Sequence record: PZ465523.1
Source: a phage
DNA length: 49,119 bases
Strand: one strand, 5' to 3'
Positions 1,930 to 28,516 of the stretch are shown piece by piece. The notes beneath the pieces were generated by a model. It saw nothing but the letters and a program-made list of their open reading frames with translations. It did not search any database and had not been told where the DNA came from. The position numbers and the translations under genes are program-made. Every line of letters begins with the position of its first letter. The first letter of the stretch is position 1.

Positions 1930-2235
1930 ATGGCGTATGGTATATCAACTTGGGACGCAAATGGCGTTTATAATAACTATGGAATTAAGCCTGTTACGGT
2001 TGTTGGTTGGAACTTTTTGTCAGCAGGACAGAATTCAGCATCGTTCAGCTATCAAGTTCCTCCTGGTATGCATGTGAACTACGTTATAAGCCTTGACGAT
2101 GGCGCCATTAGTGGGCCTGGCAGGAAAATTATTGCTAGCGGTAATACGATAACAGTAACGCCAACAAACTCACCTGGGCCAAACGTGTACCCATCATCAA
2201 ACTGCTACTTAATAGCATATCTGGAGAATGATTAA
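1930..2235 (+). CDS. Hypothetical tail-region protein, paralog of the next ORF
   Basis: ATG with RBS GAGGA; shares Y-G-x-x-x-W-D-A-x-G motif with 2235..2924. Confidence 0.55.
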   Translation: MAYGISTWDANGVYNNYGIKPVTVVGWNFLSAGQNSASFSYQVPPGMHVNYVISLDDGAISGPGRKIIASGNTITVTPTNSPGPNVYPSSNCYLIAYLEND

Positions 2236-2924
2236 TGTCATACGGTGCTTTTATAGATGTAAACGGAAACCCATTCATAACCCCGTTATCCACGCCATTC
2301 GCCTTATATGCGAGAGGGGAAATTCAATCAGTAAATGTTAGTGGTTCACAGGTTGCGGAGAGATATGTTCGGATACCTACAGGTGTTCCGGTTATAGCTT
2401 TTTGCAAAACAACAAACACGCAGCAGGGGACCGCGCTTTCAGCCTTTACTTTCAGAGATGGACCAAATGTTGGAACTGTTTACATAAGGGGGACAAATCC
2501 AGCAAACCAATCATACACGCTAACATATTACATATTTGCCATATTTGAGCAGTCACTACCGAGCTGGGGTATGGCAATATGGGATGCGTCAGGAAAGCTA
2601 GTGCTGACAAATGAGACAAAAGTCCTTAGTGATTTGGTTACAATCGGAACTCCTGGGTACGCTGGCGGTGGGCTAAACATAGACACAACACTCAGCGGAA
2701 GCTACGCAGTTGTCCCAACTATACTTGGCAACTATCAAATTGTTATCGGCAGATTGCCAACTGGGCAACCCATAATAGGAAACTCAACAGCAGGCAGTTC
2801 ATGCAGATACAACGGGAGCACAACGAGAATAAATGCAGCAGCAACCACTGCGGCAGGTCAGGTAATGAACACCACGAATAATGGAAATATTATAACAGCA
2901 ATAAAAACGGCAGCATACGACTAA
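2235..2924 (+). CDS. Hypothetical tail-region protein, possible receptor-binding accessory
   Basis: ATG overlaps upstream stop (TAATG); Gly/Thr/Asn-rich C-terminus. Confidence 0.55.
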   Translation: MSYGAFIDVNGNPFITPLSTPFALYARGEIQSVNVSGSQVAERYVRIPTGVPVIAFCKTTNTQQGTALSAFTFRDGPNVGTVYIRGTNPANQSYTLTYYIFAIFEQSLPSWGMAIWDASGKLVLTNETKVLSDLVTIGTPGYAGGGLNIDTTLSGSYAVVPTILGNYQIVIGRLPTGQPIIGNSTAGSSCRYNGSTTRINAAATTAAGQVMNTTNNGNIITAIKTAAYD

Positions 2925-12337: not shown

Positions 12338-12585
12338 TGAACGAGAAAATGATTCCTGTTAAGTTAACAGATCAAGGTTTATGGCTACTTTATCGAGCTA
12401 CGTGCTGCGAAATTATGGAGCGAAACGGATTGACTCAGGATGTTATTGGTTGCGATCTGTGGGAGTTCACTAGTTCTCTTGATATGTCTTTCGATGAGAT
12501 AAAAAATGAACATATAGAGAGTTGGCCTTCAATTATCCAGAAAGACGTAGAGGAACTTAAAGCAGATACGATCGCGCAGCACTAA
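12334..12585 (+). CDS. Hypothetical protein
   Basis: ATG overlapping Dam stop; stop codon lies inside the next box. Confidence 0.5.
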   Translation: MMNEKMIPVKLTDQGLWLLYRATCCEIMERNGLTQDVIGCDLWEFTSSLDMSFDEIKNEHIESWPSIIQKDVEELKADTIAQH

Positions 12586-19484: not shown

Positions 19485-19530
19485 AATATACCTTACTCCC
19501 TATTTATTGTCTTTAGCAATTAGTGCTATC
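19485..19530 (-). promoter_or_regulatory. Box-type promoter: GATAGCACTAATTGCTAAA, 23 nt, TATATT
   Basis: Hairpin GGGAGTAA-ggtatat-TTACTCCC. Confidence 0.55.
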
Positions 19531-26974: not shown

Positions 26975-27019
26975 AATAGCACGAATTGCTAAAACTTGCT
27001 CAAGGGCATTTGTTAGAAT
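26975..27019 (+). promoter_or_regulatory. Box-type promoter: AATAGCACGAATTGCTAAAA, 22 nt, TAGAAT
   Basis: Hairpin AAGGGCATT...AATGCCCTT. Confidence 0.55.
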
Positions 27020-27058: not shown

Positions 27059-27262
27059 ATGAAAACTATTACCGGAATGAGCAACGAAACGAGAACGCAG
27101 AACGTTAACATGCTAATCGGGATGGCTGACGATATTCAGAATAGCCATGTCGTTATTGATTCATGCAATCAGACTCGTGAGAGTAAATTTGAATCATCCG
27201 GCTACAAAATTGTTGAAGAAGAATTAACCATCAAAATCATTCGCGTACAGGAGAAAGCATAA
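27059..27262 (+). CDS. Hypothetical protein (67 aa)
   Basis: ATG after leader CAACCAATCAGAGGAATCA. Confidence 0.5.
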   Translation: MKTITGMSNETRTQNVNMLIGMADDIQNSHVVIDSCNQTRESKFESSGYKIVEEELTIKIIRVQEKA

Positions 27263-27795
27263 TGGATAAAATCACAATTTGGGGTCAGACAATCAACCTG
27301 TTTCTCGGCACTCGCCGCGTGGCAATCTTTGACTTCGACGGAACACTGAGTGACGGCTCAAAACGTCTTCACCTGCTACCGACGAAAGATTTGCACTTAA
27401 CGGAAAGCTGGTCTGAGTTCAACCGCGCGGCAATATTTGACAATCCTATCCGTAGTACGATTGATGTGATGAACTCTATGTTTGCCGCTGGGTATCATGT
27501 GATTATTTTAACCGGGCGAAGCGATGAGGTGCGTTACGCATCTGAGTTATGGCTTAAGCATCACGGCGCTCGATATGATTACTTAGTCATGAGGCCGCAT
27601 ACCGACAACCGCAAAGACACGGTAATGAAAGAAGAGGCTGTGCGCGCGATCGGCATTGATAACATTCTGGCGGCCTGGGATGACTCACCGCAAATTATTC
27701 CATTATTCCGATCGCTTGGAATAACCACGTATGCCGTAGTTGACTATGGCGATAACGTTCACGACCATTTAAAATCTCACGGGGTGGATGAGTGA
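27262..27795 (+). CDS. HAD-superfamily phosphatase (polynucleotide 3'-phosphatase-like)
   Basis: DxDGT motif FDFDGTL near N-terminus; later TGR and DD motifs; start overlaps upstream stop. Confidence 0.65.
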   Translation: MDKITIWGQTINLFLGTRRVAIFDFDGTLSDGSKRLHLLPTKDLHLTESWSEFNRAAIFDNPIRSTIDVMNSMFAAGYHVIILTGRSDEVRYASELWLKHHGARYDYLVMRPHTDNRKDTVMKEEAVRAIGIDNILAAWDDSPQIIPLFRSLGITTYAVVDYGDNVHDHLKSHGVDE

Positions 27796-27907
27796 ACCTA
27801 TACGAATTTATTGCAGCACATCCTGTATTGACGGTTATCATCCTGTTAATCATCAATCACACTATCATCAATGTGGCAAAATTATTTTTAGGGAGATACT
27901 AACATGA
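27788..27907 (+). CDS. Cys/His-rich 39-aa peptide between phosphatase and kinase
   Basis: ATG overlaps phosphatase 3' end; stop TGA overlaps kinase ATG (ATGA); sequence MSEPIRIYCSTSCIDGYHPVNHQSHYHQCGKIIFREILT. Confidence 0.4.
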   Translation: MSEPIRIYCSTSCIDGYHPVNHQSHYHQCGKIIFREILT

Positions 27908-28476
27908 AAACAGCTATCATTTTAAACGGCGCACCTAGAGCGGGAAAAGACACTATCGGATGCATCCTGGCTGACACTTACGATCACGTAGCGCTCCGCA
28001 GCTTCAAGGCTCCAATGTTTGAGATTGCCCGGGCAATCCTGGGTGAAGCTAACTACGAGTATTTCATGTTCTTGTATGATGACCGTCGATATAAAGAAGA
28101 GCCAGCATCAATCCTGAACGGTAAAAGCCCGCGCCAGTTTATGATCTGGATTAGCGAGGAAGTCATCAAGCCGCAGTTCGGAAATCGCTTCTTCGGTATG
28201 CGAGCGGAAAGCGAGGTGAAAGAGTCGAACTCCCTTTCGGTATTTACTGATGGTGGATTCAAAGACGAAATCTTGCAGATGATTGAAGGTGATATCCAAG
28301 TCAAGCTATGCCGCATACATCGCAACGGCTGCAACTTCGATAACGACAGTCGAGATTATATCTACTTGGATGATATGATCGGTGTCAACGGTTATCAGGA
28401 ATGTGATTTCTTCTCTGTCGAAGGTCATCCAGAAATTACCGCTCAGCACATAGCCGCCACGTTCATCAATAAATAG
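27904..28476 (+). CDS. P-loop nucleotide or polynucleotide kinase
   Basis: Walker A NGAPRAGKDT near N-terminus; stop TAG inside box. Confidence 0.6.
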   Translation: MKTAIILNGAPRAGKDTIGCILADTYDHVALRSFKAPMFEIARAILGEANYEYFMFLYDDRRYKEEPASILNGKSPRQFMIWISEEVIKPQFGNRFFGMRAESEVKESNSLSVFTDGGFKDEILQMIEGDIQVKLCRIHRNGCNFDNDSRDYIYLDDMIGVNGYQECDFFSVEGHPEITAQHIAATFINK

Positions 28477-28516
28477 CACGAATTGCTAAAACGTCGATGG
28501 GGTGATTTGATATAGT
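28472..28516 (+). promoter_or_regulatory. Box-type promoter: AATAGCACGAATTGCTAAAA, 22 nt, TATAGT
   Basis: Read directly; kinase stop embedded. Confidence 0.55.

Follow-up and report, generated by a model that had tools for sequence, protein, structure and literature searches.

The genome of a T1-like phage carries, on one strand, a gene for a HAD phosphatase, a very small reading frame and a gene for a P-loop kinase, packed so closely that they invite a common explanation. A phosphatase next to a kinase recalls the bifunctional polynucleotide kinase-phosphatase (PNKP) with which other phages heal broken nucleic acid ends, and an earlier note on this DNA accordingly read the locus as a possible split PNKP whose halves are joined by a small zinc-binding peptide, while keeping nucleotide metabolism as a fallback. 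We asked to which families the two enzymes belong, what is encoded between them, and what the pair is likely to do for the phage.

The cassette and its surroundings

The window, by which we mean the whole stretch of 49,119 nucleotides analysed here (PZ465523.1), shows 96% identity by Megablast to Shigella phage Shfl1 (Tunavirus) and belongs to a T1-like coliphage of the same genus. The genes in question form one early-gene cassette on the forward strand, consisting of orf67 (27059..27262), the phosphatase (27262..27795), a 36-aa peptide gene (27792..27902) and the kinase (27904..28476), with copies of a promoter-associated repeat at both ends. The first of these is a 67-aa ORF matching phrog_29229, which is found in some relatives only and whose stop codon overlaps the phosphatase start (TAATG). 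The cassette is ordinary, and it is already annotated in T1-like coliphages: the Tunavirus orthologues of the other three genes share 90 to 98% identity, are listed as bas13_0074 to bas13_0076 in LeonhardEuler and as ARW57202 to ARW57204 in SH2, with the small gene annotated in the 27792 frame; in T1 the three places are taken by pnk, HNH and dNMP kinase.

A simple sigma-70 scan did not find a promoter for the cassette, and the family-specific repeat units that flank it were located by a pattern search. The window contains 23 copies of the repeat, TAGCACGAATTGCTAAA, where 0.13 would be expected, and this family repeat has already been described for TLS and T1 (PMC11447400). Upstream of the cassette, the promoter-like unit at 26977..27019 (forward strand) combines one copy of TAGCACGAATTGCTAAA with TGtTAGAAT, an extended -10-like element (27014..27019) that lies inside the inverted repeat AAGGGCATTT/GAATGCCCTT, with 22 nt between repeat and hexamer. 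The next such unit, at 28474..28516 on the same strand, marks the end of the cassette; the first triplet of its TAGCACGAATTGCTAAA copy is the kinase stop codon TAG, and its -10-like TGaTATAGT ends at 28516, in the loop of the inverted repeat GTCGATGGGGTGATT/AGTTACCTCATCGAC. We rejected TTGCTA as a -35 element with a 17-nt spacer, because the -10-like hexamer sits 22 nt downstream. We found no terminator-like sites inside the cassette.

Family membership of the phosphatase and the kinase

The HAD phosphatase that the earlier note recognized by its FDFDGTL motif is real, and it can be placed further. The protein of 177 aa is a stand-alone DxDxT phosphatase that matches the Pfam family PF25109 (HAD_PNKP) with 61 bits (cut-off 27.6; E 1.8e-16), and matches phrog_415 at 1.9e-66, a family that the phosphatase domain of T4 PseT also matches. 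Profile searches of the PDB retrieved Pnkp1 (2.8e-15) and T4 Pnkp (1.7e-08), and hhalign aligned the protein with T4 PseT at 97% probability. The structural model agrees, with 4XRP (Pnkp1), 5UJ0 and 1LTQ (T4 Pnkp) as the best Foldseek matches (E 2.6e-07 to 6e-06); the TM score of these matches is only ~0.57, owing to the poor modelling of residues 30 to 65. Whether by sequence or by fold, Pnkp1 and T4 Pnkp are the only solved relatives.

The active site tells the same story. In T4 Pnkp, the roles of D165, D167, S211, K258 and D278 have been described, and the set comprises a nucleophilic Asp, a general-acid Asp, Ser/Thr and Lys contacts to the phosphate and a Mg-binding Asp (PMC3592404). These residues pair in hhalign with D24, D26, T84, K123 and D141 of the window phosphatase, respectively; T28 aligns as well, and all six are invariant or nearly so among 40 homologues. 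Every T4 Pnkp catalytic residue that we checked is thus conserved, and the catalytic set that we assign to the phosphatase consists of D24, D26, T28, R35, T84, R86, R111, D119, K123, D140 and D141.

By sequence and by model, we therefore classify the protein as a PNKP-type HAD enzyme, with substrates suggested by homology and fold. It shares the HAD subfamily PF25109, the fold and the catalytic residues with T4 Pnkp (1LTQ, 5UJ0) and with Capnocytophaga Pnkp1 (4XRP), which is part of the Pnkp1-Rnl-Hen1 RNA repair complex. Unlike Pnkp, however, it consists of the HAD domain only, with no fused P-loop kinase domain, and the gene order of phosphatase followed by kinase is the reverse of the Pnkp domain order. 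It also differs from the T4 enzyme in a highly conserved insertion of ~16 residues (H37..A56, LHLLPTKDLHLTESWSEFNRA), which is partly common to Pnkp1, and in having S142 where T4 has R279. In some relatives the phosphatase is 203 aa long, with an additional tail that contains Cys and His. The gene that is commonly called 'polynucleotide kinase' in T1-like phages is therefore the phosphatase half only, and the common annotation should be corrected in this sense.

The P-loop kinase of 190 aa, with its GAPRAGKDT motif, was likewise confirmed, and here the evidence points to a different family. The protein matches phrog_139 at 5.9e-46 over profile positions 82-260, and T4 gp1 matches the same profile over the same span (positions 83-261, 1.8e-65). 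The best structural match of the kinase model is T4 gp1 itself (1DEK; 170 of 190 residues aligned), and the two proteins share an unusual P-loop, G-x-x-R-x-GKDT, which reads GAPRAGKDT here and GVKRSGKDT in T4 gp1. Divergence is large, with only 14% identity to 1DEK and a length of 190 aa versus 241 aa, and since the runner-up structural match is phosphomevalonate kinase, the fold alone does not fix the substrate. When the kinase profile was aligned by hhalign with the single sequences of T4 gp1 or T4 PseT, only the P-loop was covered in both cases and the two could not be discriminated; because single-sequence alignments reach no further than the P-loop, the gp1 assignment draws on the PHROG profile and the predicted structure. 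In the PDB, neither the single sequence nor a 43-sequence profile found a significant match (best E 0.075, P-loop only), and Pfam and NCBIfam have no family for this kinase.

Relationship to polynucleotide kinases was sought directly. The kinase matched neither the PNK families phrog_505 and phrog_2071 nor the Pfam kinase models, and PNK kinase domains were matched neither by profile nor by fold. T4 Pnk depends on Asp35 as general base, on Arg38 after the P-loop and on Ser16 in GxxGxGKS (PMC2831316). On inspection of our kinase alignment (A1), neither Asp nor Arg is invariant anywhere in residues 17-76, the span of T4 Pnk Asp35 and Arg38; every sequence has Lys at position 35 and Asp, rather than Ser, at position 16. 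Profile and predicted structure together argue that this is a P-loop (deoxy)nucleoside monophosphate kinase of the T4 gp1 family and not a polynucleotide kinase, and its closest known systems are T4 gp1 (1DEK; phrog_139) and the T5 dNMP kinase family. The homology searches and structure prediction that had been proposed as a check on the split-PNKP reading therefore divide the locus, the phosphatase being PNKP-like and the kinase gp1-like rather than PNK-like.

Conserved pairing and the probable role of the two enzymes

The Drexlerviridae pair is strictly conserved and usually overlapping (ATGA). The kinase lies downstream of the phosphatase on the same strand in all 80 phosphatase loci that we examined, directly contiguous in 37 of them, and the phosphatase lies upstream in 44 of 47 kinase loci. 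In three loci (L025, L037 and L039) the overlapping pair is found at another position of the genome, between exonuclease and lysis genes; since both genes were relocated together, the pair moves as a unit. With order and strand kept in 80 of 80 loci, the pairing is not accidental. The same pairing was reported in the KanT1 paper, where nucleotide supply was proposed.

We consider the best explanation to be a cassette in which a PNKP-type phosphatase and a gp1-type kinase act in nucleotide supply (probability about 0.6), and the supply of nucleotides from degraded host DNA appears the most likely role, ahead of RNA repair by a split PNKP. The fallback of the earlier note, nucleotide metabolism, is the better reading given a gp1-type kinase. 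T1 and TLS degrade host DNA and reuse its nucleotides, and the TLS reannotation states that the enzymes responsible have yet to be identified (PMC11447400). In such a scheme the phosphatase, working via an aspartyl-phosphate intermediate on D24, would act on 3'-nucleotides and on the ends of DNA or RNA, stripping them of 3'-phosphates and perhaps of 2',3'-cyclic phosphates. Blocked 3'-phosphate ends and products would thereby be opened up, letting breakdown proceed to 5'-dNMPs, which the kinase would convert to dNDPs and so feed back into the dNTP pool. A 3'-phosphatase has no obvious obligatory step on the way to 5'-dNMP phosphorylation, so that the salvage link is plausible but indirect; our literature searches turned up no experiments on either of the two Drexlerviridae enzymes. 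The conserved pair of phosphatase and dNMP kinase is thus a candidate for the conversion of host DNA into phage dNTPs long known for T1, a modest and testable lead rather than a surprise.

Alternatively, the two enzymes might be functionally independent and merely syntenic accessory genes, with the kinase alone serving dNTP synthesis. The phosphatase might then, for example, clear blocked 3' ends at nicks in the phage DNA so that host polymerase and ligase can act on them, or its substrate might be a signalling nucleotide with a 3'-phosphate or a cyclic phosphate. This would sit well with the many Drexlerviridae in which a stretch of 0.7 to 2 kb with unrelated small genes lies between phosphatase and kinase, and with T4, in which the counterpart activities, pseT and gene 1, are unlinked. 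We nevertheless think it unlikely, though not negligibly so, in view of the invariant order and strand, the contiguous loci and the joint relocation described above.

The split PNKP is more doubtful. Here the HAD enzyme would heal 3'-phosphate or 2',3'-cyclic-phosphate ends, the gp1-like protein would phosphorylate 5'-OH ends of polynucleotides, and a host ligase would seal the healed breaks in tRNA or DNA, countering nuclease-based defences. The phosphatase is of the right type, a genuine PNKP-type domain whose active site is intact, and a strictly conserved, often translationally coupled pair is what a split bifunctional enzyme is expected to look like. The boundary between kinase classes is also not absolute, as T4 Pnkp accepts mononucleotides as well (PMC2831316). 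Yet the other half of the proposal fails on the kinase, which falls in the gp1 family phrog_139 with no PNK-family or Pfam kinase match, lacks the Asp35/Arg38 acceptor motif and has Asp instead of Ser at position 16. The phosphatase locus moreover shows neither the fused kinase nor the partner ligase of bifunctional Pnkp and RNA repair systems. The earlier note had seen no ligase, and this holds: the curated annotation of the relative LeonhardEuler, with 83 genes, lists none, and neither an RNA nor a DNA ligase emerged from Pfam and PHROG scans of the larger unassigned ORFs of the window. The E. coli RNA ligase RtcB works on 3'-phosphate or 2',3'-cyclic-phosphate ends, which it joins to 5'-OH ends, and healing would remove just the ends that RtcB uses. 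Taken together, these points make a split PNKP improbable.

A bolder proposal, to which we give little weight, takes the invariant pairing as the mark of a two-enzyme machine acting on one substrate, with the 36-aa peptide perhaps tethering or regulating the pair at the membrane. In one version the machine may be a split end-healing enzyme for which a gp1-fold kinase was recruited as 5'-kinase; in the other it may be a short pathway that leads to dNDPs from breakdown products bearing a 3'-phosphate, such as 3'-phosphate ends or nucleoside 3',5'-bisphosphates.

The small gene between the enzymes

Two overlapping frames compete for the space between the enzymes. The earlier note had pointed to the ORF at 27788..27907 (forward strand) as an unannotated gene, and its description of this ORF is correct: it has 39 codons with three Cys and four His, begins with an ATG within the final codons of the phosphatase and ends with a TGA that overlaps the start of the kinase. 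Our comparison of 14 distinct related sequences shows that it is not a gene and that the frame at 27792..27902 (forward strand), which is already annotated in relatives, is. The latter starts with GTG, overlapping the phosphatase stop (GTGA), and ends with TAA 1 nt ahead of the kinase ATG; its final codons include the Shine-Dalgarno sequence of the kinase, GGGAG (27891..27895). The packing of the three genes is thus tight enough for the translational coupling that had been suggested, with the 27792 frame, not the 27788 frame, as the middle gene.

Selection separates the two frames clearly. At the shallow divergence of the 14 distinct sequences (23 variable columns), the 27792 frame has a dN of 0.018 versus a dS of 0.257 (dN/dS ~0.07), indicating purifying selection, and third codon positions account for 15 of the 23 variable columns (P = 0.0017); part of the 3' end of the gene is under the additional constraint of the ribosome-binding site of the kinase. 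All 14 sequences begin this frame with ATG or GTG and close it with a stop in register. For the 27788 frame, dN is 0.082 versus a dS of 0.028 (dN/dS ~2.9), with amino-acid changes in 22 of 23 variable codons and synonymous change only in the remaining one. In 7 of the 14 sequences, TGA, TAA or AGA stands where this frame should have its ATG. Of the three Cys, two are variable (C13 is Gly in 11 of 14, C29 is Tyr in 2), and so are the His residues, whose abundance arises because the real frame has ATC (Ile) codons.

The proposal that a 39-aa Cys/His peptide is translated, binds zinc and links the two enzymes has almost no chance of being right, even though the frame stays open in the window and in every relative and keeps its ATG in half of the distinct sequences. 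A frame of this length stays open by chance with a probability of (61/64)^39 = 0.15 per frame, and ATG-initiated ORFs of at least 39 codons number 209 in the window. The peptide is absent from the called proteins of a 15-billion-protein collection, and the 27792 frame accounts for all of the conservation. We therefore rejected it on start loss, Cys variation and dN/dS; as far as comparative sequence analysis can show, it is refuted: the ORF merely shadows the 36-aa gene in an alternative frame, and the zinc-binding linker is a reading-frame artefact.

The product of the 36-aa gene, MNLYEFIAAHPVLTVIILLIINHTIINVAKLFLGRY, is predicted to be a hydrophobic single-helix membrane peptide (GRAVY 1.25; best 19-residue window mean 2.22), so that correcting the frame would replace a zinc-binding linker by a membrane peptide between the two enzymes. 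Exactly the same sequence is present in NCBI, several phage records in GenBank list it as "hypothetical protein", and the same frame is annotated as bas13_0075 (LeonhardEuler), ARW57203.1 (SH2) and WPJ70006.1 (ULIM2). We found the peptide in 52 phage records, all from Escherichia, Shigella or Enterobacteria phages. Neither Pfam nor NCBIfam has a family for it, and among 1.84 billion representative proteins only its own cluster was retrieved, with no wider family detectable. Conservation across these sequences marks 27792..27902 as a real gene, one that is confined to Tunavirus and probably was inserted between the two enzymes in this lineage with tight coupling retained. The peptide is dispensable for the phosphatase-kinase pair, and in T1, Eco_BIFF and one other genome a gene for a 164-aa HNH endonuclease replaces it.

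Gene order and reading frame of the small gene

The cassette runs in the order orf67 (27059..27262), phosphatase, 36-aa gene and kinase, with stops and starts that overlap or abut. The two enzyme ORFs are present as the earlier note described: a phosphatase of 177 aa with the motif FDFDGTL (27262..27795) and a kinase of 190 aa with the motif GAPRAGKDT (27904..28476). The small gene between them (27792..27902, product MNLYEFIAAHPVLTVIILLIINHTIINVAKLFLGRY) begins with a GTG that overlaps the phosphatase stop (GTGA) and ends with a TAA one base before the kinase ATG, and its last codons contain the kinase's Shine-Dalgarno sequence, GGGAG. We were not able to find a terminator-like site inside the cassette, which has a copy of the family's promoter-associated repeat on either side (26977 and 28474).

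The earlier note had read this gap differently, as a 39-codon ORF (27788..27907) encoding a possible zinc-binding linker. That ORF exists and contains three Cys and four His, but it is the wrong reading frame for the small gene. We collected 47 related loci from IMG/VR, using the kinase as query, and three annotated GenBank loci; fifteen sequences (14 distinct) had the same 108-nt spacing and were used to compare the frames. Variable columns at codon positions 1/2/3 numbered 6/2/15 in the hydrophobic frame versus 16/8/4 in the Cys/His frame, and variable codons split 14 synonymous-only to 5 amino-acid-changing in the former versus 1 to 22 in the latter. Both the third-position excess (binomial P = 0.0017) and the synonymous-only excess (P = 5e-5) favour the hydrophobic frame, for which mean pairwise dN and dS were 0.018 and 0.257, as against 0.082 and 0.028 for the Cys/His frame. 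An ATG or GTG start is kept in 14/14 distinct sequences for the hydrophobic frame, whereas the Cys/His start becomes TGA, TAA or AGA in 7/14. Cys13 is replaced by Gly in most relatives and Cys29 by Tyr in two.

GenBank gene calls at this gap also use the hydrophobic frame (bas13_0075, ARW57203.1), and the exact 36-aa sequence is deposited at NCBI as WPJ70006.1; the Cys/His peptide was not found among ~15 billion proteins. The His-richness of the Cys/His frame arises because the hydrophobic frame carries ATC (Ile) codons, and an open frame of 39 codons is unremarkable by itself, since its chance is 0.15 per frame and 209 ATG-ORFs of at least this length occur in the window. With its start, its Cys residues and its codons varying in this way, the Cys/His frame is ruled out as a gene on comparative grounds, and the zinc peptide gives way to a conserved, predicted hydrophobic product.

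A variable slot between phosphatase and kinase

The 36-aa peptide is strongly hydrophobic, with a GRAVY of 1.25 and an average of 2.22 in its best 19-residue window; its N-terminus is acidic and its C-terminus basic, a composition that fits a predicted single membrane-spanning helix. It is restricted to a narrow clade: it occurs in 52 phage records at >=90% identity, all from Escherichia, Shigella or Enterobacteria phages, and among 1.84 billion representative proteins it makes up one cluster. In T1 and two other genomes exactly the same slot holds a gene for a 164-aa HNH endonuclease; three genomes at a greater distance have phosphatase and kinase overlapping stop to start (ATGA); and elsewhere in Drexlerviridae the two enzyme genes are separated by 0.7 to 2 kb of small unrelated genes, many of them, often including the one directly after the phosphatase, encoding small membrane proteins. 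The slot seems to collect small membrane-protein genes. The 36-aa gene is therefore an insert specific to its lineage, in a slot whose content varies, and its product is not a linker that the enzymes need.

In loci L004, L006 and L007 (T1 genome) the HNH gene takes the exact place of the 36-aa gene, and the phosphatase gene has diverged at its 3' end as well, which suggests a homing-type insertion or replacement at this junction. In many Drexlerviridae (loci L018 to L050) the ORF overlapping or following the phosphatase stop codes for a small, unrelated protein that has a predicted membrane helix or signal-like N-terminus, such as the 27-aa MNTYQMMVFAAIMIINSIVIAIIVSGA in L031 or proteins of 73 to 89 aa in L018, L020, L023, L027 and L028. 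The 274-nt spacer (2226..2501) of a Shigella phage vB_SsoS_008-like record (IMGVR_UViG_2974611450; L040 and L068) looks like an interleaved mosaic of the HNH variant and the 36-aa-gene variant, and most probably arose as an artefact of assembly or consensus building from a mixed population.

Families of the two enzymes

A 1.7-kb query around the cassette matched 121 phage records, all T1-like siphophages of Escherichia, Shigella and Klebsiella, with Shigella phage Shfl1 (Tunavirus, Drexlerviridae) the best at 95.9% identity over the full length. In these records the phosphatase gene is labelled 'polynucleotide kinase' or 'kinase/phosphatase', and the kinase gene 'hypothetical', 'P-loop NTPase' or 'deoxynucleoside monophosphate kinase'. 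Public T1-like genomes thus already contain all three genes, mostly annotated, and the finding is ordinary.

The phosphatase belongs to phrog_415 and scores 61 bits against Pfam HAD_PNKP (threshold 27.6). By sequence, the only relatives with a solved structure are Capnocytophaga Pnkp1 and T4 Pnkp (PseT), and these also top the Foldseek list obtained with its AlphaFold model (mean pLDDT 81.5, weak at residues 30 to 65). Aligned to PseT with hhalign (97% probability), residues D24, D26, R35, T84, R86, R111, D119, K123 and D140/D141 pair with T4 D165, D167, R176, S211, R213, R246, D254, K258 and D277/D278, and all are invariant or almost so in 40 homologues. In T4 Pnkp, D165 is the nucleophile, D167 the general acid, S211 and K258 contact the phosphate and D278 is a Mg ligand; the enzyme acts on 3'-dTMP, 3'-phosphate RNA and 2',3'-cyclic-phosphate RNA (Das and Shuman, PMC3592404). 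Unlike T4 Pnkp, the window phosphatase has no fused kinase, carries a conserved ~16-residue insertion after R35, and has Ser in place of R279.

In some Tunavirus genomes (L002, L003, L009, L013, L017) the phosphatase is 203 aa long and is extended at its C-terminus by a 26-residue tail, VCNHEPSEPLPPFG(D/E)KICIKCKELLK, in which a C-x-H ... C-x-x-C pattern resembles a small zinc knuckle. This tail is missing from the window (at 27793) and from T1, whose phosphatases are of 176 or 177 aa.

No family emerged for the kinase from sequence searches of Pfam, NCBIfam and PDB. Among PHROGs it falls in phrog_139 ('deoxynucleoside monophosphate kinase'), at 5.9e-46 across profile positions 82 to 260. The T4 deoxynucleoside monophosphate kinase gp1 matches this family too, across positions 83 to 261; PseT falls in phrog_505 and phrog_2071, neither of which the window kinase matches. 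Its viral structural neighbours are overwhelmingly labelled dNMP kinases, and its P-loop, GAPRAGKDT, is closer to GVKRSGKDT of gp1 than to GCPGSGKST of PseT. Essential residues of the T4 Pnk kinase include Asp35 and Arg38 (PMC2831316); the family alignment of the window kinase has no invariant Asp or Arg at residues 17 to 76, and an invariant Lys at position 35. Family match, neighbours, P-loop and the missing Asp/Arg therefore identify it as a predicted gp1-type NMP kinase, on which all tests run agree. A BFVD match, A0A7S6HV70 of Escherichia phage JEP1 (518 aa), is a homologue of the kinase that contains a homing endonuclease domain of DOD (LAGLIDADG) type, so an intein or homing element can reside in the kinase gene.

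Pairing, possible role and promoter-like repeats

The phosphatase lies upstream in 44/47 kinase loci within the fetched flank, and reciprocally the kinase lies downstream on the same strand in 80/80 phosphatase loci, directly contiguous in 37. In three loci (L025, L037, L039) the overlapping pair is found between DNA-repair exonuclease and lysis genes rather than upstream of terminase, so the two genes move together. The KanT1 paper notes the same arrangement and suggests enhanced nucleotide supply, and T1 and TLS break down the host chromosome and recycle its nucleotides by means of gene products that have not been identified (PMC11447400). We propose that the phosphatase would strip 3'-phosphates from nucleic-acid ends or from nucleotides released by host DNA breakdown, that the kinase would return 5'-dNMPs to the dNTP pool, and that the 36-aa peptide may be a separate small membrane protein. 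The earlier note likened the pair to a split polynucleotide kinase-phosphatase, which in other phages supports the healing of nucleic-acid ends; this likeness holds for the phosphatase but not for the kinase, which is gp1-type and lacks the acceptor motif. As that note had also observed, no ligase is evident; none is annotated in a curated close relative, and none was found among the larger window ORFs that lack an assignment. The family of the kinase, its missing acceptor motif and the lack of a ligase all speak against RNA repair by a split enzyme, which keeps a small probability because the pairing is so strict.

The repeat TAGCACnnnTTGnTAAA occurs in 23 copies in the window versus 0.13 expected, for example at 12577, 14565, 24167, 24884, 26458, 26977 and 28474 on the plus strand and at 19528, 20643, 21058 and 21475 on the minus strand. 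This 21-nt direct repeat is known from TLS and T1, with its function unsettled (PMC11447400). A -10-like hexamer (TATAGT, TATAAT or TATATT) follows 18/23 copies (background frequency 10%), exactly 22 nt after TTGnTA in 17 of the 18 and 23 nt after it in one; this association of repeat and hexamer is the new observation here. Eleven of the 18 units carry an extended-10 TGn, and a short GC-rich inverted repeat usually accompanies the hexamer, which occupies its loop or overlaps one of its arms. Each unit resembles an extended-10 promoter that has a fixed element upstream.
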